Shown here piece after piece: positions 6,383 through 27,870 of a stretch of DNA of 64,000 bases. How positions within the stretch are numbered: position 1 is the stretch's first letter; every line of letters starts with the position of its first letter. The DNA comes from a virus: IMG/VR virus record IMGVR_UViG_645058793_000001, positions 1-64,000 of that record; one strand, written 5' to 3'. A program made the translations under genes and the position numbers. The notes beneath the pieces were generated by a model. It had not been told where the DNA came from. It saw only the letters and a program-made list of their open reading frames with translations, and made no database searches.

Positions 6383-6406
6383 TAACGTATACGTTAACGT
6401 TAACCT
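6383..6406. repeat. ACGTWW hexamer palindromic array, copy A (TTAACGTATACGTTAACGTTAACC)
   Basis: Seen directly; the same motif family recurs at 18973, 21404, 25048 and 27835. Confidence 0.6.
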
Positions 6407-6422
6407 ACCATTTAATCTCATC

Positions 6423-6662
6423 TTATGTAACGGTGTAACCTTTTGGCTCAAACACTTTACGGATTTCGTCTGTTGTTAAACCACTGTATTTTGTATAGAT
6501 ATGATTACTAACAGAATCCCTAATCTCATGCCACAAACAATCAATGATTTCTTTACGTTTTTTGTCGGCTGTTGGTTTATATGGCATGTCTAAACTAATG
6601 TATATTGCTACTGCTATAACTGTAACTACACTAGCAACTAGCAAACTCATTAATATATCCAC
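6423..6662 (-). CDS. hypothetical membrane protein (79 aa)
   Basis: N-terminal TM helix. Confidence 0.35.
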   Translation of the reverse strand: MDILMSLLVASVVTVIAVAIYISLDMPYKPTADKKRKEIIDCLWHEIRDSVSNHIYTKYSGLTTDEIRKVFEPKGYTVT

Positions 6663-6898
6663 TTCCCTGTCTCCCTCCGGTAACGTCCCTGAAACTCATC
6701 TTCATATAATTTATTCTTGTAATACCAGCCTAGTTCCTTAGCAATCTTGGCGTATAATAACGGTCTGGATAATTCACCGTGGTTGTTATCACAAGCTGCT
6801 TTGAATACTTGGTACTGGTGTTCTGCCTTACCGTTTTTCTTGTTCATAGATACCACCCGATTAACACAACGATCACTAGCAGTATGATTGATAACCAC
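6650..6898 (-). CDS. hypothetical protein (82 aa)
   Basis: ORF. Confidence 0.35.
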   Translation of the reverse strand: MVINHTASDRCVNRVVSMNKKNGKAEHQYQVFKAACDNNHGELSRPLLYAKIAKELGWYYKNKLYEDEFQGRYRRETGKWIY

Positions 6899-6908
6899 AA
6901 TGCTGCTT

Positions 6909-7250
6909 TCATGTGAACAGACCTACGATTGCGATAATCATTGTCAGTCCGAGTAAGATGTTGTTTAGTCGGAACGCTTCATCATGGTCGTTGAGTTTAT
7001 TACTGACCGCCTTGAATGTATCGGTAACGCCGACGAACAATTCAGTGTGTTTACCCACATCATCTTGTAACTTAGTAACCCTGCTGTCAGTTTCATCTAC
7101 ACGACTATGAAGTCGTTGTGTTTCAGTAGTAGCTACCGTTAATTTACCATCGTTCACGTCCAAGCGTTGGCTGAGTTTTTGTGTTTCAGTAGTAGCAGTT
7201 GTTAATTTATCGTCGATACTATTTCTGTAACTATCATTTTCCGTCATCAT
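6909..7250 (-). CDS. coiled-coil repeat protein with C-terminal TM anchor (113 aa)
   Basis: Tandem TVATTETQ(K/R)L repeats; a direct repeat of about 60 bp is visible in the DNA at 7120-7210; hydrophobic C-terminus. Confidence 0.4.
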   Translation of the reverse strand: MMTENDSYRNSIDDKLTTATTETQKLSQRLDVNDGKLTVATTETQRLHSRVDETDSRVTKLQDDVGKHTELFVGVTDTFKAVSNKLNDHDEAFRLNNILLGLTMIIAIVGLFT

Positions 7251-7530
7251 TCACCGCCTCCAGTACAGCCAATGCACCATCAATAAATCCGTTCGCATAT
7301 TCAACCGTTACCTCGCCGGTATTTAAATAGGTAGAAAAGTCTGCGAATATTTGTTGTGTATCTTTAGCGTTCATAACTATCAACCTCAGTAGTTTTAGCT
7401 AGTACTGCTGTCTTGATTGGTTGTATCTTATATCCGTCTTTTAATAGTTCAGCGACTTCTGAATAAAACACTTCATCGTCACCTTCCATAACTAACTTTG
7501 TGTCTAATTTAACAGTTACATGTTCTGCCA

Positions 7531-7761
7531 TTACACTAACCTCACTACATTCGTATCGTGTGCAATCATTTCATGCACTGCATCATCAACTTCCGTAATC
7601 GTGTGCAGACCACCATCATGCAAGCGGTTGTATTCGTCTCGCGGATATTCGTAAACGTAATCGAATAAAATCATATTCATTTCCATATATCCAGCACGAT
7701 CAACAAGTCCTTCTGAATCTCTCCACATATTTCGGAATTCCTCTGTCGTTAGTTTGTACAT
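7531..7761 (-). CDS. hypothetical protein (76 aa)
   Basis: ORF. Confidence 0.35.
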   Translation of the reverse strand: MYKLTTEEFRNMWRDSEGLVDRAGYMEMNMILFDYVYEYPRDEYNRLHDGGLHTITEVDDAVHEMIAHDTNVVRLV

Positions 7762-7763
7762 AT

Positions 7764-7952
7764 CTACAACCCGATTTCTTTCACGGTTTCTTTTAACTCA
7801 CTTGCAGAAATACCTTCGTCATTGTCGATAAATCCTTGAATGACGTCTTCTAACTGAATTAATTTGTTTAAATAATCGTTTGGCACAGTGGCTAAAGTTT
7901 CAATTTTTGCCACACCAAATCCTAATTCGATATCAAGAGTTTCATTTCGCAT
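7764..7952 (-). CDS. hypothetical protein (62 aa)
   Basis: ORF. Confidence 0.3.
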   Translation of the reverse strand: MRNETLDIELGFGVAKIETLATVPNDYLNKLIQLEDVIQGFIDNDEGISASELKETVKEIGL

Positions 7953-7960
7953 ACCATCAC

Positions 7961-8263
7961 CTAAATTTTAATGTCGATTGTTGCTTGCTTAACCTTAGTA
8001 TTAATTTGCTTCAACAGCCTACGATTAATATCCTCGGTATCAATTTCCCAACTCTCGATAGCTTTGTTAATAACCAATTTCACTTGCTTATCAACAATGG
8101 CAAATGCCGAACCATCTTTTCGTTCCCAACGATTTGAATTAAACGCTTGGTTAATTGCATCTTTAATTGCTCGATCAATCTTTTTATTAATGATCGCTTG
8201 GTAGTCTTCCTTATGTGTCTCCAACCAATTGGCAATCATCTCGTTTGTAATTTCAATTTTCAT
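7961..8263 (-). CDS. hypothetical protein (100 aa)
   Basis: ORF. Confidence 0.4.
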   Translation of the reverse strand: MKIEITNEMIANWLETHKEDYQAIINKKIDRAIKDAINQAFNSNRWERKDGSAFAIVDKQVKLVINKAIESWEIDTEDINRRLLKQINTKVKQATIDIKI

Positions 8264-8422
8264 TTACTCGTCACCCTCCACCAACTGACCTTCCACAACG
8301 ATTGATCCATACTCATCGGCATCGGTAATTAAATCTCCATCTTCGTCATACAAAGCAAACTTTTGCATAATCGCAGCTACCATAAACTGTGATAATTCAA
8401 CTTTCACAAATTTATTATCCAT

Positions 8423-8710
8423 TTATTCAACCACCTTTACGCACTCTGGGTGCAACCACGCTTGTGCTAATTCTTCATCAGTTAAATGACCATATAGTTC
8501 ATCTGAATAAAGTATGAAATCAAGAAAACCTGTAAGACTAGAAGTTTCTTTTTGGGTTAATAATAAAGCCTTCTCTTCTTTAGACATCTTGATAGTTGGC
8601 GTATAAGTTAATTTAAAATTGTCAATAACATAGATAGCTAACACTCTTAATTCTGTCTTTCTAGTTGGAATGTTTTCTAGTAATAAATCCATGCCCTCAT
8701 CAAACGTCAT
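8423..8710 (-). CDS. hypothetical protein (95 aa)
   Basis: ORF. Confidence 0.35.
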   Translation of the reverse strand: MTFDEGMDLLLENIPTRKTELRVLAIYVIDNFKLTYTPTIKMSKEEKALLLTQKETSSLTGFLDFILYSDELYGHLTDEELAQAWLHPECVKVVE

Positions 8711-8819
8711 TCCTCAACCTCCCGAATTTCATACCGCTTATCATGGTATCGACTAAGTAGTTCGCTTAAATCAATACCCCAGTCGAACGGAATATTATCT
8801 TCGTAGACAACGTATTTAG

Positions 8820-9056
8820 TCATTCGTACTCCACTCCTGCAATGTTTTCGTTTGGGATAAGCACAAAATTGTGTACAGTAGTTACTCTAAAAGTATCGTC
8901 TAACCAGTTATCAATATCCGTAACAACTGATCCATTAATCCATTCCTTCAATGTGAATTCTTTGAACACCGGTTCGCCAACCGTAAACGTAACTGCTGGA
9001 TATTTACCGTGGACATACACCTGCTCACGTAAACTGATTGTTTTAATCTCTTTCAT
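8820..9056 (-). CDS. hypothetical protein (78 aa)
   Basis: ORF. Confidence 0.35.
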   Translation of the reverse strand: MKEIKTISLREQVYVHGKYPAVTFTVGEPVFKEFTLKEWINGSVVTDIDNWLDDTFRVTTVHNFVLIPNENIAGVEYE

Positions 9057-9262
9057 ATCTTATATACCTTATAATTCCCTCTGACCGATTCACGCTTGCC
9101 TGTCTTGATACGACTAACTGCTGAATCAAAGGAACCTAGTTTAATACCTAACCAATCAGCAACTTCAATTCTGCTACCCACCATAATAGGTAAATCATCA
9201 GTGTCGTATACAATATACAGGCTAGTATTCATACGTATCAGCGTCCTCCAATACGAAACCAA
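9053..9262 (-). CDS. hypothetical protein (69 aa)
   Basis: ORF. Confidence 0.3.
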   Translation of the reverse strand: MVSYWRTLIRMNTSLYIVYDTDDLPIMVGSRIEVADWLGIKLGSFDSAVSRIKTGKRESVRGNYKVYKI

Positions 9263-9590
9263 ACTCGTCTAATTTACCAATCACATAGTGTGCCTCTCGG
9301 TTATCTAACACGCTTTTGCGACGGTCAAATTCATCACTGATAATATATGCCCCATCTAATCGACTAACGTATAGTTCATCGTCACTGGTAATAACATATT
9401 TCTTTTCCGCACCCTCTGGTAAATCAGCAACCTTAACGTTAGTGAACGTACCATTACCATTTGAATATGAAATCGTTTCTACATCGAACGGCACATCAAT
9501 TAATTTCTTCATTTCTAACAACCTCTTTTTTCTTTGAATCATAGATAACAATTCGCTTGTCATTTTTAAACTTGTAGTGTTTATCGCCAT
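9222..9590 (-). CDS. hypothetical protein (122 aa)
   Basis: ORF. Confidence 0.4.
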   Translation of the reverse strand: MAINTTSLKMTSELLSMIQRKKRLLEMKKLIDVPFDVETISYSNGNGTFTNVKVADLPEGAEKKYVITSDDELYVSRLDGAYIISDEFDRRKSVLDNREAHYVIGKLDEFGFVLEDADTYEY

Positions 9591-9822
9591 ACCAGTATCT
9601 GTAATTGGTAGTTACCGTGACCTGATAACGGTCGTTGTTATATTTTTTGCTAGTGTTACCAGCATTAGTTGATGACGCCGTTCCGACCACAATCAACACG
9701 CCAACAATGAATAGCCACACGATTACGCAAAAAATGTAATCTCCAATACCAAAAAATGTTCCCCAGAACAGTGCAATAATTACTATTAATGCCGCGACTG
9801 ATAACCCAAAAAACCAAATCAT
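9496..9822 (-). CDS. hypothetical membrane protein (108 aa)
   Basis: Two long hydrophobic segments. Confidence 0.4.
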   Translation of the reverse strand: MIWFFGLSVAALIVIIALFWGTFFGIGDYIFCVIVWLFIVGVLIVVGTASSTNAGNTSKKYNNDRYQVTVTTNYRYWYGDKHYKFKNDKRIVIYDSKKKEVVRNEEIN

Positions 9823-10004
9823 AAACTGTCCACCAACGCCTTTGCTCGTTTAAAATCACCTGTGTACATCAAACCTTTTAACTTACTAATTTTCGAATAC
9901 ATGTGAACGTAATCTCTATCCACAATGTTTATCACTTCGTCTGCCAACTCATCAGCAGGACGACCGTTGCTTTCAATCTTCACGGTTATATTCATCTGAC
10001 TCAT
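9819..10004 (-). CDS. hypothetical protein (61 aa)
   Basis: ORF. Confidence 0.3.
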   Translation of the reverse strand: MSQMNITVKIESNGRPADELADEVINIVDRDYVHMYSKISKLKGLMYTGDFKRAKALVDSL

Positions 10005-10155
10005 ACTCCTTCATTTGGTTGTATCTGTGTAGGTAGTGATACTTATAAGCGTATTCGCTCACACCTAGCAACCGCATTGCTTCTTCATCGTTCATACCAA
10101 TTGCTTTATACATACGCATCTGGTTGAACAAATCATTCTCTTCTCTACTCCGCAT
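9973..10155 (-). CDS. hypothetical protein (60 aa)
   Basis: ORF. Confidence 0.3.
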   Translation of the reverse strand: MRSREENDLFNQMRMYKAIGMNDEEAMRLLGVSEYAYKYHYLHRYNQMKEYESDEYNRED

Positions 10156-10654
10156 AGCTAGTCAACGCTGTTAGCCCATCTGTATATGCAACGTAATCCG
10201 CCCATACGTTATCCAACATTTCAGTAGTGTCTTTTACATCATCAACCGTTAACTTACCGTAATTTAAATGCGTACCAATAACTTTTGCTTGTTCAAGCAA
10301 ATCTGTGTCAGCTTCTTTATGCAAATCTTCGGCTACACCATCTAAATCTTTACGCAATCTATCAGGAAAATCATTACCAAATACATGCATAACCGTAACG
10401 ATTACTTTTTGTGCTGGGTTAATTACCATACCGACTTCACCACTTGTCCACAATTGGCAGCCGTCTTTTTGATTACGAGTTAATTCTGCATTCTCGTTAA
10501 AGTTAATCAGCCAATTTTTCCAACCGCTTCGTTTCGTCTTGAAACGACTTTCCATTTGTTCCACTGCATGATCAGAAAAATCATACAGTTCAATTCGTTT
10601 AATGCCCATACAACAATACCTCTCCGATACGATTTGCTTGCTCCTCTGTTCCAA
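10145..10654 (-). CDS. hypothetical protein (169 aa)
   Basis: ORF. Confidence 0.4.
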   Translation of the reverse strand: MEQRSKQIVSERYCCMGIKRIELYDFSDHAVEQMESRFKTKRSGWKNWLINFNENAELTRNQKDGCQLWTSGEVGMVINPAQKVIVTVMHVFGNDFPDRLRKDLDGVAEDLHKEADTDLLEQAKVIGTHLNYGKLTVDDVKDTTEMLDNVWADYVAYTDGLTALTSYAE

Positions 10655-10784
10655 AGAATCGAACTAGCTGGTAGATGCCCCAGTAAATCACACGTTTGAT
10701 ATAAGGTAGCAAATACACTAGCAGGAACACTGGAACGAACCAAATCAATATTTCCACAAACATTTTAATTAATAGTTGAACCAT
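10599..10784 (-). CDS. small hydrophobic protein (61 aa; start uncertain)
   Basis: TM-like segment; overlaps the downstream gene, so an internal Met may be the true start. Confidence 0.3.
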   Translation of the reverse strand: MVQLLIKMFVEILIWFVPVFLLVYLLPYIKRVIYWGIYQLVRFFGTEEQANRIGEVLLYGH

Positions 10785-10990
10785 TTTTTTATTTTCCTTC
10801 TATATAAGAACGCTCTGGCTGCCCAGAAAATTGATAGGACAATACTAATGAGTGAAAGGATAATGACGAATACGTTTCCTGTAAACAGTAATACTAGGTT
10901 GATAATCGACAAAACCAGTACATGAACTGAAAGCATATTGCTTAGATAGTTCATGTGATTATTTATTTTTAATCTATCCATGTGCTTCAC
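10769..10990 (-). CDS. small membrane protein (73 aa)
   Basis: Two TM helices. Confidence 0.35.
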   Translation of the reverse strand: MKHMDRLKINNHMNYLSNMLSVHVLVLSIINLVLLFTGNVFVIILSLISIVLSIFWAARAFLYRRKIKKWFNY

Positions 10991-11975
10991 CAGTTAGTTG
11001 TTCGATCGAAACGTCTAGGGCATCTGATAGTTTGAAAATAGTTTCTAATCTAGGAGTTGTACGTCCGTTTTCGTAATTAAAAATATTATTTACATACAGC
11101 CCTGAACGTCTTGCTAATTCATTCATTGAATACCCACGTTCTAAACGATATTTATTAACATTATTTCCAATCGCAACTGCTGGACTAACATATTCAGATT
11201 TCAATTTCTTGGCAAAGTAATTATGACCTTTAGGAGTAATCATAGTTGTACGGCTTACCTTGTTATTGCTAACTATTTGGTAAGTATAAAGTGTCTCTTT
11301 AACTTCCATATATCCAAAATCAAGTGATTTAGATGTAGGTAAGTTATAATTATCACCACGTTTTGTTGTGCATACCCAACCGTTATCACGGAACCATTGG
11401 TATAACTTTTTCTCACCAATCTTAATTCCGTATTCCTTATTCAACACTTTCGCAAATGCTGACACGCCCATGCTTTCCTTGCTGCCTTCCATGATTAAGG
11501 CAACCTTTGCGTCTTCCTGTAACTTCGCAGTCAATGCACGTTCGTTCTTTAAGTCGGTTGCCACACGAATTAATGTTTCAGGACTTAGCAACACTTCCTC
11601 AGTCATGTAAGCACCATGCTTACGAATGTCGGGTAAGACTTCGGTCGTTAGCCAGCGCTTAAATTTCTTGGCTTGCTCTTTCATTTGTGGGTTACGTGAT
11701 TGCTTTGATGCGTCCCAAATCATTGAGTAGATACCTGACTCGTTGATGAAGATTGGATATTGCTCACGGCCAAGGCTGTCTGTTATCGATGGGGCTCCAA
11801 CTTGGGGTCCCATCTTTCTATCTTCATTATCAACATGCTTTACAACAGCATCTTTTGCTTTCGCATATCCCAATACCTCAGCCACATCTTTACCAACGAA
11901 CCATGGTTCATCATCAATCATTACCTGGCGGACGTCTTTACCTTCAAAACCTAGAACTTGTAACTCATTGTTCAT
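10974..11975 (-). CDS. Bro-N family antirepressor-like protein with C-terminal XRE HTH
   Basis: N-terminal Bro-N-like segment (QVLGFEG...DEPWFVGKDVAEVLGY); C-terminal HTH (YSMNELARRSGLYVNNIFNYENG). Confidence 0.6.
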   Translation of the reverse strand: MNNELQVLGFEGKDVRQVMIDDEPWFVGKDVAEVLGYAKAKDAVVKHVDNEDRKMGPQVGAPSITDSLGREQYPIFINESGIYSMIWDASKQSRNPQMKEQAKKFKRWLTTEVLPDIRKHGAYMTEEVLLSPETLIRVATDLKNERALTAKLQEDAKVALIMEGSKESMGVSAFAKVLNKEYGIKIGEKKLYQWFRDNGWVCTTKRGDNYNLPTSKSLDFGYMEVKETLYTYQIVSNNKVSRTTMITPKGHNYFAKKLKSEYVSPAVAIGNNVNKYRLERGYSMNELARRSGLYVNNIFNYENGRTTPRLETIFKLSDALDVSIEQLTGEAHG

Positions 11976-12180
11976 GACGAGCCTCCCATAATTCGTTGAC
12001 GTAACTTTCTGCTTTACTTAGAACTTCATTAGTCTTTTCCTTTGATGCAATTCCTTTTTGAACTCGTGCAAACGTCGTATTGTTCACACCGATGTGATAT
12101 AACAATTCGTCTTGATGCAATTGAACGGAAAACATTTTTCCTTTTAACGTACCAACACGATCCAGAACTTCCTGTTCCAT
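11965..12180 (-). CDS. Cro-like small HTH regulator (71 aa)
   Basis: First gene of the leftward operon at the divergent switch; HTH-like TFARVQKGIAS. Confidence 0.5.
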   Translation of the reverse strand: MEQEVLDRVGTLKGKMFSVQLHQDELLYHIGVNNTTFARVQKGIASKEKTNEVLSKAESYVNELWEARHEQ

Positions 12181-13763: not shown

Positions 13764-13765
13764 AA

Positions 13766-15139: not shown

Positions 15140-15568
15140 CTAAAGTTCCTCTGTTTTGTCATTACTAACTACCTCCGTAACAACTTTCAATTCCTCAATC
15201 CTTTTACGTTTACCATTCAATTGCTTGTTACCTTTTTCAATGTGCTCACGGTTGTGATTAGCTGGTGAAACAACTTCTAGGTTATCCACATCAGCTCGTC
15301 CTTCCCATGCTTCACGCAAAGGCACAATGTGGTGAACTGTATTCCCATCAATCAACCGACCAAAGTCCACTAATTCCACTTGATCAAAACCATGGTCACG
15401 ATTGATTACTTTACGTCTAACCGATAGCCATTCACGACTACGATAGAACGCTTGTACTTCCTTTTCAGACGGCTGGTAACTATTCGTATGTCGATACTTA
15501 TCAAACGCTTTCTTGCGCCTGTTGATAGCCGTCTGTTGCATGTCACTTATTAATGAGGTAGTTTGCAA
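15140..15568 (-). CDS. HNH endonuclease
   Basis: HNH motif (NTVHHIVPLREAW ... N ... H). Confidence 0.6.
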   Translation of the reverse strand: MQTTSLISDMQQTAINRRKKAFDKYRHTNSYQPSEKEVQAFYRSREWLSVRRKVINRDHGFDQVELVDFGRLIDGNTVHHIVPLREAWEGRADVDNLEVVSPANHNREHIEKGNKQLNGKRKRIEELKVVTEVVSNDKTEEL

Positions 15569-15845: not shown

Positions 15846-15846
15846 A

Positions 15847-16272
15847 TTAGATATACTCCTTTTCCATTGCTGCGAAATTTATCCACGGATATTCCTGTTC
15901 AACTGCTGGGAAATCATCGTCAGTCCAAACCAAATCGATGTCTAACATACCAGCAAGTTCCTCGTTCATATTAATTTCAATACGATCAGTAACTTTATTA
16001 CGACCAATATACTTACCACGTTCTGTACGCAACATAAATGGTTTGTCATCATCGTTACCGTCAATTAGCAAATCAATATACTTACGGGCTTTCTTTAAAT
16101 CTTCCTTGCCGTTTTTCTTATCAGCGCGAGAAACATACTTAATGATATTAGCAACCTTCCATGCCTCGCTGCCGTTCATACCAGCAACAATACTATTGAT
16201 ATGATCCTTCACTTCAGTACCGTCTGATAGTACGTAATGCTCTGGCTTATCTATAATGTCAAATGAACTCAT
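15847..16272 (-). CDS. DUF3310-like phage protein
   Basis: PEHY...KY(V)SRADKKNGKEDLKKARKYIDLLI pattern resembles the DUF3310 family. Confidence 0.4.
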   Translation of the reverse strand: MSSFDIIDKPEHYVLSDGTEVKDHINSIVAGMNGSEAWKVANIIKYVSRADKKNGKEDLKKARKYIDLLIDGNDDDKPFMLRTERGKYIGRNKVTDRIEINMNEELAGMLDIDLVWTDDDFPAVEQEYPWINFAAMEKEYI

Positions 16273-18226: not shown

Positions 18227-18643
18227 TTATTCCTCCGTAAGTAATCGTTTATATAATCGCTTGAAAAAAGCGTTTCGTTGTCTAAAAAGTAAAGCTCGAC
18301 TAACACCAAACTTTATTGCTAACGAGACCATTGTCTCTTGTGTATGACGTTTGAAATACAATTCATTAATTAGTGTTTGCATTTCATCACTTTCACGACC
18401 AACCATGCGACGAATTGTCTTTTGATTGTGTGTCAGTGTATTTAATTTTTTATCATCAGCAACCTTGATTACTGTGCTTTCGAACGCGTGCGTGTTGTTA
18501 TTCTGCATACGTCCACCACCAATATTTTCATCGGTTTCATTCCGCTTAACCATTAACTCGAATTCGGTACGTTTGATTTCCACATCAAGCTCTGGATAGC
18601 GTCTCAACCAAGCCGCAACTGTTGCTGTTTCTTTACTCGTCAA
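18227..18643 (-). CDS. ArpU-family phage late transcriptional regulator
   Basis: Sigma-like helix pattern (ATVAAWLRRYPELDVEIKRTEFEL ... ALLFRQRNAFFKRL). Confidence 0.6.
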   Translation of the reverse strand: MTSKETATVAAWLRRYPELDVEIKRTEFELMVKRNETDENIGGGRMQNNNTHAFESTVIKVADDKKLNTLTHNQKTIRRMVGRESDEMQTLINELYFKRHTQETMVSLAIKFGVSRALLFRQRNAFFKRLYKRLLTEE

Positions 18644-18971
18644 ATCCGTAACCTACCAATCCTTCATTAATAATTTTCAAGGCATCTTCTGACGAACGTG
18701 CAATACCGTGAATAACTCCACGGTTGCTTAATGCTTGATGGAAAAATATCTGGTCTTTTCGTGGCCGACCAGTGGCAGTTTTAACTTCTATGTAGAACAC
18801 CTGATTATCTGTCTTACGGAACCCATATAAATCAGGGTGTCCATTCGGTACGCCAGTCATGAACCAACGATCATCTTTAGTCAGAACTTTACCAGTGTTA
18901 ATACGGAAAACAACGTGTCCGTCATGTTCAACTGCAGCACGAATAGCGTTTTGAATATCTTGTTCTCTCAT
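18633..18971 (-). CDS. VRR-NUC domain nuclease (start moved to the internal Met)
   Basis: VRR-NUC motifs (GHPDLYGF ... IEVKTATG ... K); the longer ORF to 19031 would translate the hexamer repeat (NVYVNVNVN), so ATG at 18969-18971 is preferred. Confidence 0.65.
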   Translation of the reverse strand: MREQDIQNAIRAAVEHDGHVVFRINTGKVLTKDDRWFMTGVPNGHPDLYGFRKTDNQVFYIEVKTATGRPRKDQIFFHQALSNRGVIHGIARSSEDALKIINEGLVGYGFDE

Positions 18972-18972
18972 G

Positions 18973-19000
18973 TTTACGTTAACGTTAACGTATACGTTAA
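18973..19000. repeat. ACGTWW hexamer array, copy B (TTTACGTTAACGTTAACGTATACGTTAA); extra partial unit 19015-19028 inside the primase 3' end
   Basis: Seen directly. Confidence 0.6.
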
Positions 19001-21387
19001 TGTTCTGGTATCTTAAACGTATACGATACACCCTCCTTCAACATAATTCCTTTGTATCCACGGCCTCTAGCTGTGCGTTTTGTTTTAAAGCGTTTAGCTA
19101 ACTCACTACCTAACATCTTACGAGTTGGATAATCATCAGGTTCCTCACCAACAAATTGACCCCAAGCATTTGTAACGTCTGGACCTTCTACAAAACCAGC
19201 TTCATTTTCAATGAATGTTTCTTTGATAAATTCGCCAATCGGATCACTGCTTGAATGATATTTTTCGTTTGCTTGTTTCACTGCATAAGGAACGGGACCT
19301 AGTCCTTCGTTACGCCACTTAGTAGCAGCTTTAATAAGGTACCATAGAATTGCACCAGCTTCCGTTTCTAACTTATGACCAAGGTTAACGTCAACGTCTT
19401 CCTCTTTGATTGTTAAATTGAATGGTATGACGTTCGTACGACGCCAGATACCTTCGGACGTATCGTTAATTTGTGGTAAGTAGTTTGTATCAAAGAACGG
19501 TACACCAGCTGATTGGAACTCGTATGGACGATTGTATTTTTCATTGGCAACGAACGTGCCACCACCAGTAAGTTTCTTAATGATTGCTGCGTCTAACTTT
19601 TTATTCTGTGCAATCTCAGATACCGATACCAAACGTGCGCCACGCAAACGCGCTAACTCATCGTTATTGCTGGTACTTTTCTTGCCGTCGTCCATGAATG
19701 TATCTGGGTTAACAGCTGTTACGTAATCTCCTAAGGCGTTTTTAATTGCACTCATCAAAACACCTTTACCATTACGACCGTTACCGTATAGCAAGACGTA
19801 TTCTTGTTCCTCACCATTACCGAACATTGAATATCCAACGAATTTCATCAGATAGTCAACCATGTCAGCGTCACCCAACATAACCTGATTTAGAAAAGTT
19901 TTGAATTCCTTAGGTTCAAGGTTTTTATCAGGCGCAATCAGCGTGCTCTTAGTGAAATATCGCTTAGGGTCATTGTCACTACGCTCACCAGTTGCTAAAT
20001 CATAGACACCATCTGGTGTGTTAATAACACCAACTTCCTTATCGAATATATTGATGTCCACATTAACCATCGAGGCTAGTAACTTCTTAGCACTATTCAA
20101 CCCTTTATCAGTACGTACCGACTTGGCAAATTTATGGAACGCATTAATTGCCGATTTTTTATCTTTTGAATAATTCTTCTCAGCAAGTTCTAAATCCTTT
20201 TGGTCTGGATAATTCTCGACGGTTGGTTCTGGTGGCATGATAGGTTCCTCAGTCTCAAGGATAATATCGCTGAGCTTAATAAACAATTTGTGTACCACAC
20301 GCTCAACGTCACGTTTCCATACCGTTCCGTCGAATACCATAAACGTTGTCTCAGACTTTTCCGAATCAACATGTAACACCTTGTCGCCCCAACGTTCATA
20401 GAAACGTTCTGCCATTCCTTGATCAGTGTAATCATGGTGTGGATAAACCTTTTCTTCGTCACCGTTTCCAATCACAACTGAGAAAGCTTCTGTCTTAGGA
20501 CGATACGTTTCAGTCACGTCAGTAATTGCACGATTAATCGTACCTTCACCATACGTTGACTTACCATGTTTCTCGTCCCATTTATCACGCATCAAACCAG
20601 AGTCTCGGAATATTTCGTCCATGAGATAACGGTCACGACCAGTCCAGAATGCTAATAGATTAACGAACGCTAGGTCAGCCTCCGATGCTGAACCATATTC
20701 GTCTTGCCAGTTACCGTCATAAAGCTTTTTAAAATTAGCACCACCATTAGATGCCAAAGCTTTTTCGATAACTTCTTCTTTAGTTAAATCGTTATGTTCA
20801 ATCACAACATCTTCTAATCTAGGGCGTTCCTCTGGACGAATAAGCGTGTTATATACGTGGTCAATCATTTCTTGTCCGGGAGCATTAATAGTATCTTTGT
20901 GACCCATGATGCTCATACCAGTTAAAGCAAAGAAACGACCTGTGCTGTACATCTCAACAACTTTGTCACCGTCTTGGTTTTGACGCGACTTATCACCGGG
21001 CAAGGTACCTTTAGCAATGATATGAATGCCTTCGTGAGATTGTGACAATTCGGTATATGATCCCATTGCTTCAATTGCCATACCAAGTTGCGTAGTATTA
21101 TAACCTTGTTCATACAAGTCAATCTCATCTTGGTAATGATCCATATCAATACCGAAAAACGGTGGCTTCAAAAAGAAAGCCAAACCGTCTGCATCAAAGA
21201 TTTCCATGTTTGCTAAAGCTTCATCAAAAGTTGTCCATGTACGTTCATCAGTAGAACTAGCGTGTCGGCCAGTCATTGCACTGACAGGAATTTTCGTATA
21301 ACGACTGCTCGTATCGTTCCATTCTTTACGATACAAGCCCCATTGATTAACTGACTTTAATTCTTCTGGTAAGTCTTGATAGCTCAT
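18997..21387 (-). CDS. DNA primase / P4-type (D5-like) primase-helicase
   Basis: 796 aa; C-terminal Walker A NGRNGKGVLMSAI; N-terminal primase-like region; position in the replication module. Confidence 0.75.
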   Translation of the reverse strand: MSYQDLPEELKSVNQWGLYRKEWNDTSSRYTKIPVSAMTGRHASSTDERTWTTFDEALANMEIFDADGLAFFLKPPFFGIDMDHYQDEIDLYEQGYNTTQLGMAIEAMGSYTELSQSHEGIHIIAKGTLPGDKSRQNQDGDKVVEMYSTGRFFALTGMSIMGHKDTINAPGQEMIDHVYNTLIRPEERPRLEDVVIEHNDLTKEEVIEKALASNGGANFKKLYDGNWQDEYGSASEADLAFVNLLAFWTGRDRYLMDEIFRDSGLMRDKWDEKHGKSTYGEGTINRAITDVTETYRPKTEAFSVVIGNGDEEKVYPHHDYTDQGMAERFYERWGDKVLHVDSEKSETTFMVFDGTVWKRDVERVVHKLFIKLSDIILETEEPIMPPEPTVENYPDQKDLELAEKNYSKDKKSAINAFHKFAKSVRTDKGLNSAKKLLASMVNVDINIFDKEVGVINTPDGVYDLATGERSDNDPKRYFTKSTLIAPDKNLEPKEFKTFLNQVMLGDADMVDYLMKFVGYSMFGNGEEQEYVLLYGNGRNGKGVLMSAIKNALGDYVTAVNPDTFMDDGKKSTSNNDELARLRGARLVSVSEIAQNKKLDAAIIKKLTGGGTFVANEKYNRPYEFQSAGVPFFDTNYLPQINDTSEGIWRRTNVIPFNLTIKEEDVDVNLGHKLETEAGAILWYLIKAATKWRNEGLGPVPYAVKQANEKYHSSSDPIGEFIKETFIENEAGFVEGPDVTNAWGQFVGEEPDDYPTRKMLGSELAKRFKTKRTARGRGYKGIMLKEGVSYTFKIPEH

Positions 21388-21403
21388 GTAATCCTCTTTC
21401 TAA

Positions 21404-21436
21404 ATTAACGTATACGTATACGTTAACGTTAACTTT
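21404..21436. repeat. ACGTWW hexamer array, copy C (AATTAACGTATACGTATACGTTAACGTTAACTTT)
   Basis: Seen directly. Confidence 0.6.
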
Positions 21437-21440
21437 AAAA

Positions 21441-21941: not shown

Positions 21942-21949
21942 TGTATAAT

Positions 21950-23963: not shown

Positions 23964-24298
23964 TTAAAATACCTATTCTTAATTTTTGTAAACGCAGGAA
24001 ATAAATCCAAATCCTTGGCGTATTGATCGAGCGTGCTAATACCAACGTTTAACTCATTGTATATCTGTAAGTAATTAGCATTTTGTAATACCAACTCACG
24101 GAAACGTTTCAAACGTCGTTCACGTTCGTTGCGTAGCTTCTCAGCACGTTTCGTAATGTTCCGTTCATCGTTATACCCAGTGCTTTTTCCTTGTGCAGGG
24201 CGCTCAACAACGGCTGTCAGATTAAGTTCACTTGCTTTATAAAACTTACCAGTGTGGATTTTACTTGGACCCATTGTCCCAACATCATAATCTCCCAT
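23960..24298 (-). CDS. hypothetical protein (112 aa)
   Basis: ORF. Confidence 0.35.
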   Translation of the reverse strand: MGDYDVGTMGPSKIHTGKFYKASELNLTAVVERPAQGKSTGYNDERNITKRAEKLRNERERRLKRFRELVLQNANYLQIYNELNVGISTLDQYAKDLDLFPAFTKIKNRYFK

Positions 24299-24777
24299 TA
24301 ACGTAATCCGAGTGTCTGATTATCCACAATGCGTGCTCCTGGCACTTCAATACCAGACTTAATTGCGTCCTTGATGTCAGCACGCTTTAATGAAACCTTG
24401 TATTCAGCATATTGTGGTGGTACAGATTCTTCATCGTCGATAACAACTTTTGAAGATTTACGATACTTGAATTTAAAATTACCGGCATCGACTTCATTCA
24501 TACCAAATGTATACATCGCTTCATCAACAGCTGACATCATACGACTGATTTTATTTTCAATTGTCTTACGCTTTTCACTTAGCTGCTTTTCCTCAGCTTT
24601 CAATGCATCTCGGTCAGCCTCAAGATTACGAATAACATGCCCATAACCAATTAACTTGTCAGAACTTGCGTCACGAATTGCGTCCAAGGTATCTTGTTTT
24701 AACTCATCATCATCAATATCTGAATTATATAGTCGCAAAAAATCACCTTGCATTTCATATAAGTTCAATCTCGACAC
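24298..24777 (-). CDS. Siphovirus Gp157-like protein
   Basis: Size, coiled-coil composition and position upstream of the Sak4-like ATPase. Confidence 0.45.
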   Translation of the reverse strand: MSRLNLYEMQGDFLRLYNSDIDDDELKQDTLDAIRDASSDKLIGYGHVIRNLEADRDALKAEEKQLSEKRKTIENKISRMMSAVDEAMYTFGMNEVDAGNFKFKYRKSSKVVIDDEESVPPQYAEYKVSLKRADIKDAIKSGIEVPGARIVDNQTLGLR

Positions 24778-24785
24778 ACTCCTTT

Positions 24786-25013
24786 CTAGAAAAAATCTTC
24801 CTCAGTTACTCGTTTAACGGTGACGATATTATCTTCTGTAAAATCCTCTACATCAGCTAAATCGTTCGATAGGGTACTGTATGAACCAACGGTTATCCAA
24901 TACCAAATATCATCACTATTAATGAATTCTGATAAGGTCATGACGTTCTCCACATTGTCGTAAATGGTTGGTTCCTCTTTAGATAACCAATCCATATATT
25001 CATCTAGGGACAT
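24786..25013 (-). CDS. hypothetical acidic protein (75 aa)
   Basis: First ORF of the leftward replication operon. Confidence 0.3.
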   Translation of the reverse strand: MSLDEYMDWLSKEEPTIYDNVENVMTLSEFINSDDIWYWITVGSYSTLSNDLADVEDFTEDNIVTVKRVTEEDFF

Positions 25014-25047
25014 TTGTCACTCCTTGTGTTATAATTTATTAAGTTAT

Positions 25048-25078
25048 CGTAAACGTATACGTGAACGTTAACGTCAAC
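25048..25078. repeat. ACGTWW hexamer array, copy D (CGTAAACGTATACGTGAACGTTAACGTCAAC) in the divergent promoter region
   Basis: Seen directly. Confidence 0.6.
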
Positions 25079-25172
25079 TTACAAGTAATAATATAAATCC
25101 AAACAGGTCAGGGAACTATCAAATATAAAGAATGCCAATAAAACAATTAATTTTATAAGAAAGGTCAATATT

Positions 25173-25517
25173 ATGAACTCGGTAAAAGACTTCGACTTAA
25201 AAGAACGAATAAAAATTTTAGCTGAGCAGCAAGGAAAATCATTAGCGGACATCACAAAAGAATCTGGATATACGTCTGGACGTATTGGTAATTGGTCACA
25301 ATTTTTTCCTGGCATGGCTCAGGTTGAACACATCGCAAGTTTGCTGGACGTATCGATATTAGATTTGTTGCCATACACGGCAGAAGATTTAGGAATTGAT
25401 ACAATACCAGAAACAACACCAAAAGGCGTGTTAATGACGACAGTAAACAAATCAAACTTAACGGACAGCCAGTACATCATATTAGTCGATTTAATTAAAT
25501 CAATGGAGGAAGGTTAA
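25173..25517 (+). CDS. XRE-family HTH regulator (114 aa)
   Basis: HTH (SLADITKESGYTSGRIGNWSQ); first gene of the par operon. Confidence 0.55.
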   Translation: MNSVKDFDLKERIKILAEQQGKSLADITKESGYTSGRIGNWSQFFPGMAQVEHIASLLDVSILDLLPYTAEDLGIDTIPETTPKGVLMTTVNKSNLTDSQYIILVDLIKSMEEG

Positions 25518-26272
25518 TGTCAGCAACCATAACAGCGTTTTATAACAACAAGGGTGGGGTAGCTAAGACGACATCAACAATTAATATTGCTGGGGAATTG
25601 TCTAAGCAACAAAAAAAGACCCTGATAATCGACGCGGATCCACAGGGGCATTCAACATTAAGTTTTGGATATGATGCAGACTCAATTGATGTTGAACTAG
25701 GTACAATGTTGTACAACAAGTTAGAAGGTTCACAAGCAAAAGAATACTTTATTCACATAAACGACTATCTCGATGTTGTACCAGCAAATCAAACGTTAGC
25801 CGATTTCATCGCCTCAAACCCAGAAGGGAACAATTACCTTAATGACTTCCTAAAAGGGCTGAGAGACGAATATGATTACATATTTATCGATATGGCACCG
25901 GCAGTCGACGTTATCCTAGCCAATGTGTTGAATGTAGTTGACGACTTAGTGGTATTATCTAGTCCACAACCATACGCAGTTCGTAATACCGAACGTACTT
26001 TAAACACAACTGACAGCTACAATGTACCAATTCGACGGATAGTTGCAACCATGGTGGATAAGCGTGTCAATACAGATAAAGAATTTCTAGAGCAGTTAAA
26101 GGAAATTGCAACAGAACATAACGTAAAGTTAGCTGATACGTATATTCCAATGCGTGCTGCATTCCGCGACAGTATGGGTAGGTATCAAATGCCGTTATCG
26201 CTAGTTGATGAACCTAGCTATAAAGAGGCACAACAGTATTATCATAAATTAACGAAAGAGTTGGGATATTAA
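25517..26272 (+). CDS. parA: ParA/Soj-family partition ATPase
   Basis: Deviant Walker A NNKGGVAKTT; ParA-like length and motifs (IIDADPQG). Confidence 0.8.
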   Translation: MSATITAFYNNKGGVAKTTSTINIAGELSKQQKKTLIIDADPQGHSTLSFGYDADSIDVELGTMLYNKLEGSQAKEYFIHINDYLDVVPANQTLADFIASNPEGNNYLNDFLKGLRDEYDYIFIDMAPAVDVILANVLNVVDDLVVLSSPQPYAVRNTERTLNTTDSYNVPIRRIVATMVDKRVNTDKEFLEQLKEIATEHNVKLADTYIPMRAAFRDSMGRYQMPLSLVDEPSYKEAQQYYHKLTKELGY

Positions 26273-26273
26273 T

Positions 26274-26522
26274 ATGGCTAAACCACAATTTCTAAGGAGA
26301 CCAACAAACGTATTAAAGCAGGATCCACAACCTGAAAAAGAAGTGGATCTAAGAACTAAAAGCAGTGAGGAAACAGCAACCGAATTATTAGCTGTTAGAG
26401 CAACACCAACAGTTAAGAAATTATTAGATGATTTAGGTAGTGAACTTGGTGTTAGGCAGGGTGGTAGAAGAAAAATTATCGAAGACGCCTTGTTTGATTA
26501 CTATGAAAAACAAAAAGATTAA
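26274..26522 (+). CDS. ParG/ParB-like small centromere-binding protein (putative RHH fold)
   Basis: 82 aa, basic N-terminal tail, C-terminal RHH-like (RRKIIEDALFDYYE); translationally coupled to parA. Confidence 0.45.
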   Translation: MAKPQFLRRPTNVLKQDPQPEKEVDLRTKSSEETATELLAVRATPTVKKLLDDLGSELGVRQGGRRKIIEDALFDYYEKQKD

Positions 26523-26529
26523 GTTTAAC

Positions 26530-26568
26530 GACTGGCTATCGCGTATGTGCAACTGCTAGTCGTTTTTT
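26530..26568 (+). terminator. rho-independent terminator of the par operon
   Basis: ACGACTGG...CTAGTCGT hairpin followed by TTTTTT. Confidence 0.5.
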
Positions 26569-26569
26569 A

Positions 26570-27456
26570 ACGCTATCCAAAACGCTCGCTGTACAAGTGA
26601 ACTTAATGTACGACTAAATTATATCCAGAACCGATTGTTAGTATCCTGCAGTCACTTAGTAGCCTCAAGCCGGCAGGCATTTATCACTTACGTTCTTTTA
26701 AAAATCTTCTAAAACCTTTGACAAGTAACCAAGATTAACGCTTTGAGCGCTAGGAGTGAGTTGAAGATACAGTTCACCCATAAGTCGTAGTATGAACCGT
26801 AACTGAATTGATTAACGCTTCTCGCGAAGTCGGTCGTCTCATCACATCTATCGCTCACTCATAACATTACTTTACCATGTGTCGGATTCCGTATACCTGC
26901 ATGTTTTGATTTCTCAATTTGTAACGTCCATTCGTTTGTCTTACCAAACGAGGAATCGTAGATCAACCTAGTTACCGTTCATAGCGTATAACCACGTCAA
27001 TGTTTTGCCACCCACAAGCCCAGTTAATCATGCGTTAATATTAATATTTAACGTTTAGAAATTTTCCCATTACTGAGTTGGAAGCCAGAGGCAGTGTCCT
27101 TAGATGCGCTCCCCACACCCCGATACACCTGATAGAAAGTAGCATATCGGGAAGCCCTTTGAATAACCGCGGTAACCTCTCCGCGCCACAATGTGGATAA
27201 CCAATGACGAAGGTTTCTCACGCAAAAAAAGAGACTCCAGTTACAATCCATCTGTTGTAATCGAAGTCTCTACTTGCTTGAAATTCTATCTGAAATAGGT
27301 TATAATTATCCTATTAAATAAAGATAGTAATTCTTTGTGAGTCGTTATCAAGGTCTGCCAACCAAGATAACATTTCGATACTCGCAACGTGTGAATGAGA
27401 TTGCTAATATCTGGAACACTTCAAAGCCTGCCAGCTGAGAAGTGTTCTTTTTTTGT
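26570..27456 (+). ncRNA. candidate large structured ncRNA (ORF-free, terminator-bounded)
   Basis: About 900 nt without a credible ORF, GC content visibly above the flanking genes, many local hairpins (e.g. CCGATA...TATCGG, CGCGG...CCGCG), ends at a strong plus-strand terminator at 27414-27456. Confidence 0.25.
27414..27456 (+). terminator. rho-independent terminator
   Basis: GAACACTTC ... GAAGTGTTC 9-bp stem followed by TTTTTTTG. Confidence 0.55.
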
Positions 27457-27559
27457 ATTAAGTTATTTGATGTCTCAATCATAACCTATCGGTGGGCTAG
27501 AAGTCAACAACCAAATTGTAAGAATTGCTAAAGACGTATTAAAGTTTACATAATCTATA

Positions 27560-27754
27560 TTATCGTAAGTTGTTTTTCTTTTCTAATTCCGCTAATTTTT
27601 GACGCAACAACTCGTTTTCAAGCCGTGCGTTCTGCTCGTTAATCTTATTCATTTTATATTGCTGACCTTGATTAGATCCCTCTATAAACGAATTAAATAT
27701 ATACCCGATTGAACCAATAACAAACAATACTAATGCTAATACAAATGGCCACAT
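27560..27754 (-). CDS. small membrane/coiled-coil protein (64 aa), possible lysis accessory
   Basis: N-terminal TM helix then coiled coil. Confidence 0.4.
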   Translation of the reverse strand: MWPFVLALVLFVIGSIGYIFNSFIEGSNQGQQYKMNKINEQNARLENELLRQKLAELEKKNNLR

Positions 27755-27789
27755 AACAATTACCCTCCGTTTTAAATATATTTATTATA

Positions 27790-27832
27790 CACAAAAAGCC
27801 CCACCAGTACCATCAGATACCAGTGGGGCAAT
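27790..27832 (-). terminator. rho-independent terminator (minus strand)
   Basis: GCCCCACCAGTA...TACCAGTGGGGC hairpin followed by T-run on the minus strand. Confidence 0.5.
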
Positions 27833-27834
27833 GG

Positions 27835-27870
27835 GTTAACGTAAATGTATACGTTAACGTTAACGTTATT
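27835..27870. repeat. ACGTWW hexamer array, copy E (GTTAACGTAAATGTATACGTTAACGTTAACGTTATT)
   Basis: Seen directly; lies between the endolysin stop and its terminator. Confidence 0.6.

Follow-up and report, generated by a model that had tools for sequence, protein, structure and literature searches.

Dispersed hexamer arrays in a Weissella phage as candidate sites of its own type Ib-like partition module

The window analysed here is the whole 64,000-nucleotide (64-kb) stretch of viral DNA, which is a phage of Weissella paramesenteroides with a genome of ~64 kb. Judged from its sequence, this phage probably persists as a plasmid prophage. Independent assemblies gave separate 63-66-kb contigs for it, and no integrase was found among the scanned ORFs of at least 170 aa in the window. 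The phage carries an operon encoding a helix-turn-helix (HTH) protein, ParA and a small protein, referred to below as the partner. The 64 kb contain exactly five arrays, each with 4-6 contiguous CGTWWA hexamers, and these span 21.5 kb of the early half. The features are as follows.

6382-6406, minus-strand units: array 1, four units (GGTTAA, CGTTAA, CGTATA, CGTTAA), between the stop of ORF 6423-6662 (minus strand) and the SD and TTG start of ORF 6148-6363 (minus strand)
18971-19000, plus strand: array 2, five units (TGTTTA, CGTTAA, CGTTAA, CGTATA, CGTTAA)
19015-19028: satellite of array 2, two units (AACGTATACGATAC), within the final codons of primase and 15 bp away from array 2
21405-21434: array 3, five units, bounded by the stop of the DUF669 gene (21441) and the SD and ATG of primase (21387)
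25007-25012 and 25027-25035, plus strand: putative par promoter, with -35 GGGACA and extended -10 TGtTATAAT
25048-25077, plus strand: array 4, five units (CGTAAA, CGTATA, CGTGAA, CGTTAA, CGTCAA), in a divergent control region
25173-25517, plus strand: HTH protein of the Cro/CI type, 114 aa, first gene of the par operon
25517-26272, plus strand: ParA, a small Walker-type partition ATPase of 251 aa without an N-terminal DNA-binding domain
26274-26522, plus strand: partner, 82 aa, the proposed centromere-binding protein, starting 2 bp after parA
27834-27869: array 5, six units, flanked by the lysin stop (27870) and a terminator (27798-27829)

The period within the arrays is 6 bp without spacers, and G and T at unit positions 2-3 are invariant in 23 of 23 units. 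A 20-mer is common to arrays 1, 2 and 3, with the copy in array 2 in the opposite orientation to the other two. Array 2 includes the stop codon of primase (18997-18999) and adjoins the SD-less ATG of VRR-NUC (18970-18972). Array 1 lies 12.6 kb past the primase gene, on the opposite side from the par operon. Array 4 separates the early operon (ATG 25013, minus strand) from the HTH-parA operon (ATG 25173). It starts 13 bp downstream of the extended -10 of the par operon and 95 bp upstream of the first gene of that operon; array 5 follows 1.3 kb downstream. If the leftward early operon is expressed from a candidate promoter at 25177-25150, array 4 lies in its leader. No sigma-70-like promoter was found adjacent to arrays 1-3. 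A first-pass annotation of this DNA had reported ACGTWW-type hexamer arrays at five or more sites, intergenic or at gene ends, one of them running into the last primase codons and a spurious 5' extension of the VRR-NUC ORF and one in the divergent region. The sequence is as described there, and all five arrays lie between ORFs.

The same annotation had proposed a genome-wide motif count against a shuffled expectation. The pattern ACGTWWACGTWWACGT, with at most one mismatch, gave 16 matches against 0.03 expected from 100 dinucleotide-preserving shuffles. All 16 fall within the five sites and none in the structural half, as had been claimed. A spacing of 6 bp from one ACGT to the next occurs 15 times, and every other short spacing at most 4 times. 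A motif-free scan of the 64 kb for lag-6 periodicity recovered four of the five sites and no other tract, with no matches in 20 shuffles; array 1, the shortest, was under the scan threshold. The only other match of three units (37290-37307) is at chance level, given a shuffle mean of 0.94 arrays of at least three units. Across seven near-identical relatives the cores of the arrays do not vary; the substitutions and one 8-bp indel are located in flanks or terminal units. Viral contigs commonly contain hexamer microsatellites, for example (ACGTTT)n and (TGTATA)n, and the arrays could in principle be functionless tracts of this kind, arising by chance or slippage. Against this, the units are heterogeneous within each array, and array positions are kept in a relative at 57% protein identity (described below) while the unit sequence has turned over. 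The shuffle count, this conservation of position and the invariant cores effectively refute the explanation.

ParA matches the Pfam families AAA_31 (7.9e-33), CbiA and ParA, and its NCBIfam ParA_partition score of 83 bits is under the equivalog cut-off of 180. In the partner, an M-KP-F peptide is conserved at the N-terminus, and the C-terminal part follows a strand-helix-GG-helix pattern (LLAVRATP...GGRRKIIEDALFDYY). The protein was assigned to no family in Pfam, NCBIfam or PHROG and has no ParB/SopB domains; a weak match to an Arc-like PHROG was found (E 0.05). A PDB profile search matched a single chain, 2k6l_A, over the whole domain (E=0.018), in a region that corresponds to Pfam RHH_6. With reference sequences confirmed as 1irq for omega and 1p94 for ParG, hhalign aligned the partner to omega residues 29-66, from the strand through helix B, with an E of 8.5e-4 and a probability of only 24%; BLASTP gave no alignment to omega. 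AF2 single-sequence models show a helix-loop-helix with the strand absent, at low confidence (pLDDT 68-72), and a Foldseek search found nothing. The partner is a probable ribbon-helix-helix (RHH) centromere-binding protein with a weakly supported fold. The first-pass annotation had called it ParG-like, a description that is an analogy and does not extend to homology: hhalign of the partner profile against ParG gave no alignment.

A related prophage in W. confusa (L047) has a primase 57% and a ParA 70% identical to those of the window phage. It has at least eight arrays, located before primase, in the gap between primase and VRR-NUC, after lysin, beside parA and at four further early-gene boundaries. 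The array at L047 9936-9977 occupies the same DUF669/primase boundary as array 3, and the position of array 5 also holds hexamer units in the W. confusa relatives (L047 2173-2190, three units; L168 11759-11809). L168 shows the same pattern as L047. In L047, L168 and L169, a hexamer array stands directly before the TGnTATAAT -10 upstream of parA. The unit itself differs, being YGTAWA in L047 and CGTWWA in the window phage. Could the arrays instead be operators of the 114-aa HTH protein, bound by its dimers as 16-bp palindromes (TTAACGTATACGTTAA) and repressing early genes without any partition protein? The HTH gene heads the par operon beside array 4, the arrays of the window hold perfect palindromes typical of HTH dimer sites, and the divergence of the HTH protein between the two phages (27% identity) matches that of the array units. 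However, the overlapping palindromes noted in the first-pass annotation, are specific to the window phage and not a conserved feature. The relatives keep the 6-bp period and not the dyad symmetry, and the YGTAWA repeats of W. confusa are directional, unlike palindromic operators. The HTH gene of L047 has an array-free promoter region of its own, and a terminator separates this gene from the array-parA promoter. Moreover, hexamer arrays accompany plasmid par operons that have no HTH gene. Operators of the HTH protein are thus an unlikely explanation.

These plasmids encode ParA homologues 49-54% identical to that of the phage, each followed by a homologous partner of 99-102 aa, on RepA_N, Rep_3 and other replicons of Lactobacillales. 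Counting both phages and plasmids, homologous genes of 99-108 aa lie directly after parA in L047, L168, L164, L167 and L174-L176. Hexamer arrays of the TAGTTA/TAATTA type were found directly upstream of a TGnTATAAT -10 in five of the six plasmid lineages examined, and three lineages (L164/L166, L167 and L175) have extra arrays just after the partner gene. The lag-6 scan of the plasmid loci (about 7.7-21 kb each) detected a single tract, upstream of parA. In the five array-bearing lineages, the only 6-bp-period arrays detected or read flank the par operon directly; no HTH gene was found in their par operons, and no phage genes on the plasmids. Against the partition reading, one plasmid lineage, L170 (ParA 50-51% identical), has a long palindrome in place of hexamer arrays. 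The predicted strand of the partner varies among groups with different units (LLAVRATP, RLTTVISP and LYSVAVEP). No Pfam or NCBIfam family was found for the plasmid partner of ~100 aa, and no paper was found that describes these loci (L164-L167, L174-L176), which are apparently uncharacterised so far.

In related Firmicutes phages, the origin is often formed by non-coding repeats close to the gene for primase. The primase gene of the window phage is flanked by two arrays, and a role as replication elements, either origin iterons or recognition sites of the primase-helicase, was considered. Arrays of this kind were absent from 31 phage loci (about 530 kb) that have a homologous primase module and no ParA. 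Similar arrays flank par operons on RepA_N and Rep_3 plasmids, which replicate differently, and the phage arrays are found as well after lysin and at the distant site 1. A replication element is therefore a very improbable reading.

The positional match in W. confusa, the arrays flanking par operons on plasmids and the 31 array-less phages without ParA indicate that the arrays are best read as sites of the partner. We propose, with a probability of about 0.7, that the phage's own type Ib-like partition module, composed of ParA and the 82-aa partner, has the five arrays as its cognate DNA sites. This agrees with the suggestion in the first-pass annotation of a dispersed site family for a multimerising protein such as the small ParG/omega-like protein of the par operon, with centromere-like or repressor sites, for which the comparison of plasmids, promoter junctions, unit turnover and ParA-less phages provides support at the level of sequence. 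Dimers of the partner, probably ribbon-helix-helix, would bind cooperatively to runs of 4-6 contiguous CGTWWA units. The resulting nucleoprotein arrays would form centromere-like partition complexes and activate ParA bound to the nucleoid, allowing the integrase-less ~64-kb prophage to segregate as a plasmid. The arrays may double as operators. Since array 4 lies just past the par -10 and in the presumed leader of the divergent early operon, binding of the partner there would regulate both, autoregulating par and damping early transcription. Arrays 1-3, within the early replication operon, could serve as extra centromere copies, transcriptional roadblocks or both; as they have no sigma-70-like promoter beside them, an operator role at these arrays is speculative. 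The W. confusa relative sits inside a 2.03-Mb contig and may be integrated, in which case a centromere role there would be unnecessary.

The arrays could also work as RNA, forming hairpins between genes or repeated-triplet sites in the polycistronic early transcript that control processing, stability or translation, for example of VRR-NUC, which lacks an SD in both phages. Predicted array hairpins reach -8 to -17 kcal/mol with z-scores down to -4.2 in both phages, and the distance from an array to the start codon downstream ranges from a few to about 35 nt. In L047 the six early-operon arrays all share the orientation of transcription, and their C/T variation would preserve G-U pairing on the sense strand only. 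This orientation, combined with hairpin-forming arrays, makes an RNA-level role conceivable. Such potential is, however, automatic with self-complementary units such as GTATAC and GTTAAC, and the plasmid units (AGTTAT) are not self-complementary. The parA arrays of the plasmids and of W. confusa lie upstream of the -10 and so are untranscribed from that promoter, and arrays A and B of L047 run antisense to the local genes. Overall, a function of the arrays as RNA appears improbable. Transcription attenuation, an alternative raised in the first-pass annotation, found no support in a terminator scan. No U-tract or terminator was detected at any array, the nearest being the terminator beside array 5, and the array hairpins are AU-rich and without a U-tract, unlike GC-rich intrinsic terminators.

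A more tentative extension of the partition reading is that the partition protein doubles as a genome-wide silencer, with polar arrays at gene boundaries of the lytic operon acting as stoperator-like roadblocks; we regard this as possible but doubtful. The stoperators of mycobacteriophage L5 are many short sites in intergenic operon gaps, oriented with transcription, that silence prophage genes. They would match arrays 1-3 and the uniform orientation in L047. Each L5 stoperator is a single asymmetric 13-bp site to which the immunity repressor binds; unlike the present sites, stoperators do not form arrays and have no link to a partition system. If the silencer were real, one small, previously undescribed family of centromere-binding proteins would run both segregation and the repression of replication genes, and array transcripts might add a second, RNA-level role.

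Several features of type Ib partition systems are present in the phage: a small ParA without an N-terminal DNA-binding domain, a small partner gene directly downstream of parA and conserved together with it, and contiguous short repeats adjoining the operon (array 4, and direct flanking in the plasmid operons). Among described systems, a close likeness is to delta/omega of pSM19035 from Streptococcus pyogenes, which pairs a type Ib ParA with the RHH protein omega. Omega binds arrays of 7-bp repeats at three parS sites that overlap promoters (PMC5016525), and at least four contiguous repeats are needed for ParA activation (PMC9499535); every phage array has 4-6 contiguous units. Both systems are from Firmicutes and combine a small Walker ParA with a small partner whose N-terminus is flexible and whose C-terminus follows a strand-helix-GG-helix pattern. 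Each also has several separate contiguous arrays of short repeats on one replicon, proposed here as centromere and operator. The repeats in pSM19035 are WATCACW heptads and those of the phage are 6-bp CGTWWA units, which places the phage arrays outside the omega repeat type. In addition, the partner resembles omega only marginally in sequence, the phage par genes form one operon, and the replicon is a tailed phage with three of the five arrays inside a phage operon and not at promoters.

In TP228 (ParF/ParG-parH) and pCXC100 (ParA/ParB), which share the type Ib logic, an RHH protein binds cooperatively to short degenerate repeats beside the operon and also autoregulates (PMC3130281, PMC3074162). 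The ParB of pCXC100 binds nine contiguous 9-bp repeats, compared with 6-bp units here, and its RHH fold was not predictable from sequence (PMC3074162). The parH site consists of tetramer boxes with AT spacers, and the spacer-free 6-bp period, along with the partner's lack of sequence similarity to ParG, excludes membership of the TP228 ParG family. Both plasmids have a single site per replicon, against five in the phage. Several cognate partition-protein sites scattered over a replicon are described for N15 (sopC-like), RK2 (KorB OB) and R388 (StbA) in PMC5016525, with reference to Ravin and Lane (1999) and to Balzer (1992). Phage N15 is also a plasmid prophage with dispersed sites, comparable with the five sites over 21.5 kb in the phage studied here, whose plasmid state is presumed. 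Some of the N15 sites lie in regulatory regions. N15 and RK2 use a large HTH ParB (type Ia) and inverted-repeat sites; with an 82-aa partner and tandem hexamers, the phage module is not an N15-type Ia SopA/SopB system with sopC-like inverted repeats. The Lactobacillales plasmid loci share with the phage a homologous ParA and partner, arrays with a 6-bp period and the array-TGnTATAAT junction. They differ in their TAGTTA/TAATTA-like unit and in having arrays solely at the flanks of the operon. The phage arrays would thus represent a dispersed version of a type of site found beside the same partition genes on plasmids of lactic acid bacteria.

Five runs of a 6-bp unit are found in the early half of the window, and the coordinates given for them in the first-pass annotation match the sequence exactly. 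The arrays are as follows:

6382-6405: array 1, 4 units of 6 bp
18971-19000: array 2, 5 units, with a 2-unit satellite at 19015-19028
21405-21434: array 3, 5 units
25048-25077: array 4, 5 units
27834-27869: array 5, 6 units

The pooled unit is C-G-T-(T/A)-(A/T)-A: all 23 units have G2 and T3, and 22 of them have A6. AYGTATACGTKAACGTTAAC is present at all five sites, on the opposite strand at site 2. The genome-wide count proposed earlier as a check was made against shuffled sequence: ACGTWWACGTWWACGT (at most one mismatch) occurs 16 times in the window, 16/16 within the five sites, versus 0.03 after shuffling. A lag-6 periodicity scan that uses no motif recovered four of the five sites and no other tract in 64 kb, with none in 20 shuffles. 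The array cores do not vary among seven near-identical relatives, in which substitutions and an 8-bp indel are confined to the flanks or terminal units. This invariance and the excess over shuffled sequence exclude chance as the origin of the arrays. The structural half of the window holds none, as first described. Exact-motif scans of IMG/VR returned simple microsatellites or no match, the same type of scan of GTDB genomes gave four single matches, all unrelated, and no Rfam family matched at the arrays.

The source of the window is a Weissella paramesenteroides phage of siphovirus-like type. A Logan protein matches its primase at 100% identity, and the members of the primase cluster carry W. 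paramesenteroides names and lie on 57-66 kb contigs from independent assemblies. W. paramesenteroides ATCC 33313 has a primase at least 90% identical and probably contains this phage. The early genes start at 25013 and the late genes at about 62 kb, both reading leftward, the latter as far as the lysin at 27870. A rightward operon (25173-26522) encodes a helix-turn-helix (HTH) protein, ParA and a small partner protein. The genes that bear on control and lifestyle are:

25173-25517 (+): Cro/CI-type HTH protein, 114 aa
25517-26272 (+): ParA
26274-26522 (+): partner, 82 aa
12405-13138 (+): ImmR-like HTH (109 aa) and ImmA/M78 metalloprotease pair
10974-11975 (-): Bro-N/ANT antirepressor
18227-18643 (-): Alt-like late transcription activator (DUF722)

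An integrase was absent from the 18 scanned or annotated of 26 ORFs of at least 170 aa, the other eight lying in the tail/capsid region (29893-49424). Because of this result, the ImmR/ImmA-like pair and the Bro/ANT antirepressor, a temperate phage kept as a plasmid is plausible. Curated phage and plasmid collections held no close relative, megablast of the region gave no match, and an IMG/VR scan with ParA likewise found no close relative. IMG/VR loci found via the primase are at most 37% identical and were used solely as negative controls. A GOLLD RNA lies at 62203-62575 (-) (Rfam RF02032, matched over the full model length at 173 bits, gathering score 150), adjoined by a tRNA-Asn(GTT) at 63013-63087 (-); in a W. 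confusa relative, four tRNAs stand at the corresponding end of the early region.

All five arrays are intergenic, in agreement with the earlier description. Array 3 lies between the DUF669 and primase genes, and array 5 between the lysin stop (27870) and a strong terminator. The primase stop codon lies within array 2, which the VRR-NUC ATG touches, and array 4 occupies the divergent control region, as first annotated. Array 4 begins 13 bp past the par -10 (TGtTATAAT, 25027-25035, homologous to the -10 of relatives), roughly at +6, and separates the first early gene from the best candidate for a leftward promoter (25177-25150, 9/12 match). The HTH gene is placed between the par promoter and parA. 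For arrays 1-3, no good sigma-70 promoter reading was obtained.

The positions of the arrays are kept in W. confusa-type relatives, with a changed unit. One of these, L047, is syntenic with the window (primase 57%, ParA 70%, partner 32% and HTH 27% identical). Its arrays lie at boundaries matching those of the window (between DUF669 and primase, between primase and VRR-NUC, and after the lysin), as well as immediately before parA and at four more early-gene boundaries. A second contig of this type, L168, has the same pattern. The W. confusa unit is Y-G-T-A-(T/A)-A (43 units). Since this unit is directional and mostly non-palindromic, the feature conserved between the phages is the 6-bp period with its GT core. 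The ACGTWW palindromes stressed by the first-pass annotation are present in the window but are not what the relatives have kept; they are a property of the window phage's self-complementary units, GTTAAC and GTATAC. In array B of L047, TGTATA alternates with YGTAGA. Upstream of parA, the W. confusa array is followed by TGTGTTATAAT, the same junction as on the plasmids described below.

Several other features were observed in the two phage types. The conserved ATG of VRR-NUC (MREQ...) has no Shine-Dalgarno sequence in either (window 18970-18972; L047 12502); the hexamer array extends up to this start codon, and the window has a GGAGGG motif some 60 nt before it, within the primase C-terminal codons. 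The non-coding stretch from the partner gene to the lysin-proximal array (window 26523-27830; L047 2526-4143; L168 10068-11700) holds strongly conserved blocks across these 57%-identity relatives, e.g., CGGGAAGCCCTTTGAATAACCGCGGT...CCGCGCC...AATGTGGATAAC. Small mechanical ORFs (27048-27251 and 27560-27754) overlap this stretch, which matches no Rfam family and could be a structured RNA of a new type or a plasmid-mode origin. In L047, the RNA ligase gene and an 84-aa ORF share an identical terminal 16 nt (AGCTTCAATTGGTTAG) right before arrays G and H (15315-15335 and 16065-16085), which suggests duplication or recombination at arrays, i.e., module shuffling. Although L047 carries the ParA/partner operon, it occupies 1917554-1939998 of RIFN01000016.1 (2,030,478 bp), through either integration or an assembly mis-join, and which of the two applies bears on whether its arrays act as centromeres.

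Lactobacillales plasmids that replicate in several ways (RepA_N, Rep_3) carry ParA homologues (48-54% identical). Except at L172 and L173, parA is followed there by a gene of 99-102 aa, and the six plasmid partners compared are all homologous to the window's 82-aa protein. In five of six plasmid lineages, 4-10 hexamers stand in a run immediately upstream of an extended -10, as in AGTTAC AGTTTT AATTAT AGCTTT AGTTGT AGTTAT AGTTGC AATTAT AATTAC followed by gcTTGTTATAAT; the units are of the TAGTTA/TAATTA type. The exception, L170, has a long palindrome in place of the upstream array. The lag-6 scan gave one tract, upstream of parA, in each plasmid locus scanned, and three lineages (L164/L166, L167 and L175) have a second hexamer run directly 3' of the partner gene. 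The plasmids carry no HTH gene in the par operon and no phage genes. The module of ParA and a partner of about 100 aa, with hexamer arrays abutting the extended -10, is widespread (L164-L167, L174-L176), and the ParA cluster P0141 has 381 contigs listed and 756 blocks in the contig index. No paper describing these ParA/partner loci was found in full-text literature searching, and they appear to be undescribed.

The opposite case is given by 31 phage loci (about 530 kb) that share the primase-type replication module and have no ParA, in which no arrays of this kind were found. The arrays thus travel with ParA and the partner, which supports the partition-linked site family first proposed. A role as replication elements is disfavoured by the same 31 loci and by the presence of arrays at plasmid par loci. 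Binding by the HTH protein is also disfavoured, because arrays occur at plasmid loci that have no HTH gene and because the W. confusa arrays are directional.

Other repeat regions were encountered in the scans. An IMG/VR contig with two CGTATA arrays (L105) was rejected as a related case, being an unrelated repeat-rich region with no ParA. Its dense repeats at 7250-7920 (GC 47%) comprise CTATACGTATAC-type arrays, three copies of CCACCATTCTC, four of CAGTTTTC(T/C)A and four of CACTATA(A/G)T, and the region resembles an origin of replication that combines several families of iterons. A 20-mer scan found a conserved TTCACGTATACGTGAACGTTAACGA with a 16-bp palindrome in unrelated high-GC Actinomycetota MAGs (L012 2215-2250 and L014 3640-3675), probably the operator of some regulator unrelated to the phage.

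A function of the arrays as RNA is possible as a secondary role. Predicted array hairpins have z-scores down to -4.2, yet plasmid units are not self-complementary and the arrays upstream of a par -10 are not transcribed from the par promoter. All six early-operon arrays of L047 are sense-oriented, with C/T variation that would keep G-U pairs, but two other arrays of L047 are antisense to local genes. The missing Shine-Dalgarno sequence of VRR-NUC in both phages fits an RNA role. The lack of terminator features at the arrays counts against it, and also against the transcription attenuators once offered as an alternative.

From these comparisons, the 82-aa partner is the likely binder of the arrays. 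Two features are common to the partners, an M-(A/S)-KP-(x)-F peptide at the N-terminus and a C-terminal pattern, which in the window reads LLAVRATP-TVKKLLDDLGSELG-VRQGG-RRKIIEDALFDYYEK and fits strand, helix, GG turn and helix. A five-sequence partner profile matched a single PDB chain, 2k6l_A (E=0.018, whole domain spanned), whose matched segment is Pfam RHH_6 (E=1.9e-21). Against omega of pSM19035 (query confirmed as 1irq), the profile aligned from the strand through helix B (E=8.5e-4) with a probability of just 24%, and one plasmid partner weakly matched an Arc-like repressor PHROG. The earlier label 'ParG-like' stands for an analogy rather than homology, as profile comparison with ParG (query confirmed as 1p94) gave no similarity. 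No Pfam or NCBIfam model matched the partner, and Foldseek against PDB found nothing. A word-index search for homologues of the window partner returned only itself, and an exhaustive HMMER search added only P0133, a spurious repeat-protein match. AF2 without an alignment (two single-sequence runs) gave a helix-loop-helix with the expected boundaries; the inter-subunit ribbon cannot form in such runs. On this evidence, a ribbon-helix-helix (RHH) fold is probable. The sequences of type Ib centromere-binding proteins diverge to the point that an RHH fold can often not be predicted from them (PMC3074162). The predicted recognition strand varies with the unit: LLAVRATP goes with CGTWWA, RLTTVISP and RFTIVMSP with YGTAWA, and (L/I)(Y/F)SVA(V/I/M)EP with TAGTTA-like units. 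Such pairing, in three groups only, is what protein-site co-evolution would give.

On the analogy of omega, partner dimers may coat runs of at least four contiguous units. Omega forms a left-handed protein helix on arrays of 7-bp repeats, at three parS sites that overlap promoters (PMC5016525), and at least four contiguous repeats are required in that system to activate ParA (PMC9499535). ParB of pCXC100 binds nine contiguous 9-bp repeats (PMC3074162). With 6 bp per unit, adjacent dimers would be turned by about 205 degrees and would lie on alternate faces; alternatively, a single dimer might span two units, for which the alternating L047 array B may be compared. Because array 4 lies just past the par -10 and between the leftward promoter candidate and the first early gene, binding of the partner there would place par under autoregulation and could reduce expression of the early operon. 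Arrays 4 and 5 are the counterparts of the two flanking arrays on plasmids, with 1.3 kb of conserved non-coding DNA separating the partner gene from array 5. Arrays 1-3 have no plasmid counterpart. They could be extra centromere copies, like the scattered sites of N15 (PMC5016525), roadblocks in the lytic replication operon, or both.

The plasmid prophages of lactic acid bacteria are little studied, including the way in which they link plasmid maintenance to the control of lytic genes. If the partner reading is true, the window offers a testable case of a minimal ParA/partner system whose centromere repeats have spread into a phage replication operon. It would also define a small centromere-binding protein family that is widespread on Lactobacillales plasmids and for which no Pfam or NCBIfam model was found. 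The natural specificity variants CGTWWA, YGTAWA and TAGTTA, each paired with a variant recognition strand, would help to decipher how such proteins read DNA and could provide orthogonal stabilisation parts for food-grade vectors. No current concept is overturned; the system is clean, testable and useful.

By analogy, the module would be a type Ib partition system in which centromere repeats double as operators. The closest known system is delta/omega of pSM19035, and the dispersal of sites recalls the plasmid prophage N15. The partner falls outside the omega and ParG families, since its unit has another length and motif and homology to them is at best marginal. Its proposed 6-bp unit is shorter than those of omega (7 bp) and pCXC100 (9 bp). 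Repeats of 6 bp are reportedly used by par2 of pB171, and RepC of pAD1 is said to bind 8-bp iterons flanking repBC. The partition and operator logic is familiar, and the protein family and the 6-bp unit are new. The chief novelty, as read from the sequence comparisons, would be the spread of centromere arrays into the gene boundaries of a phage replication operon.
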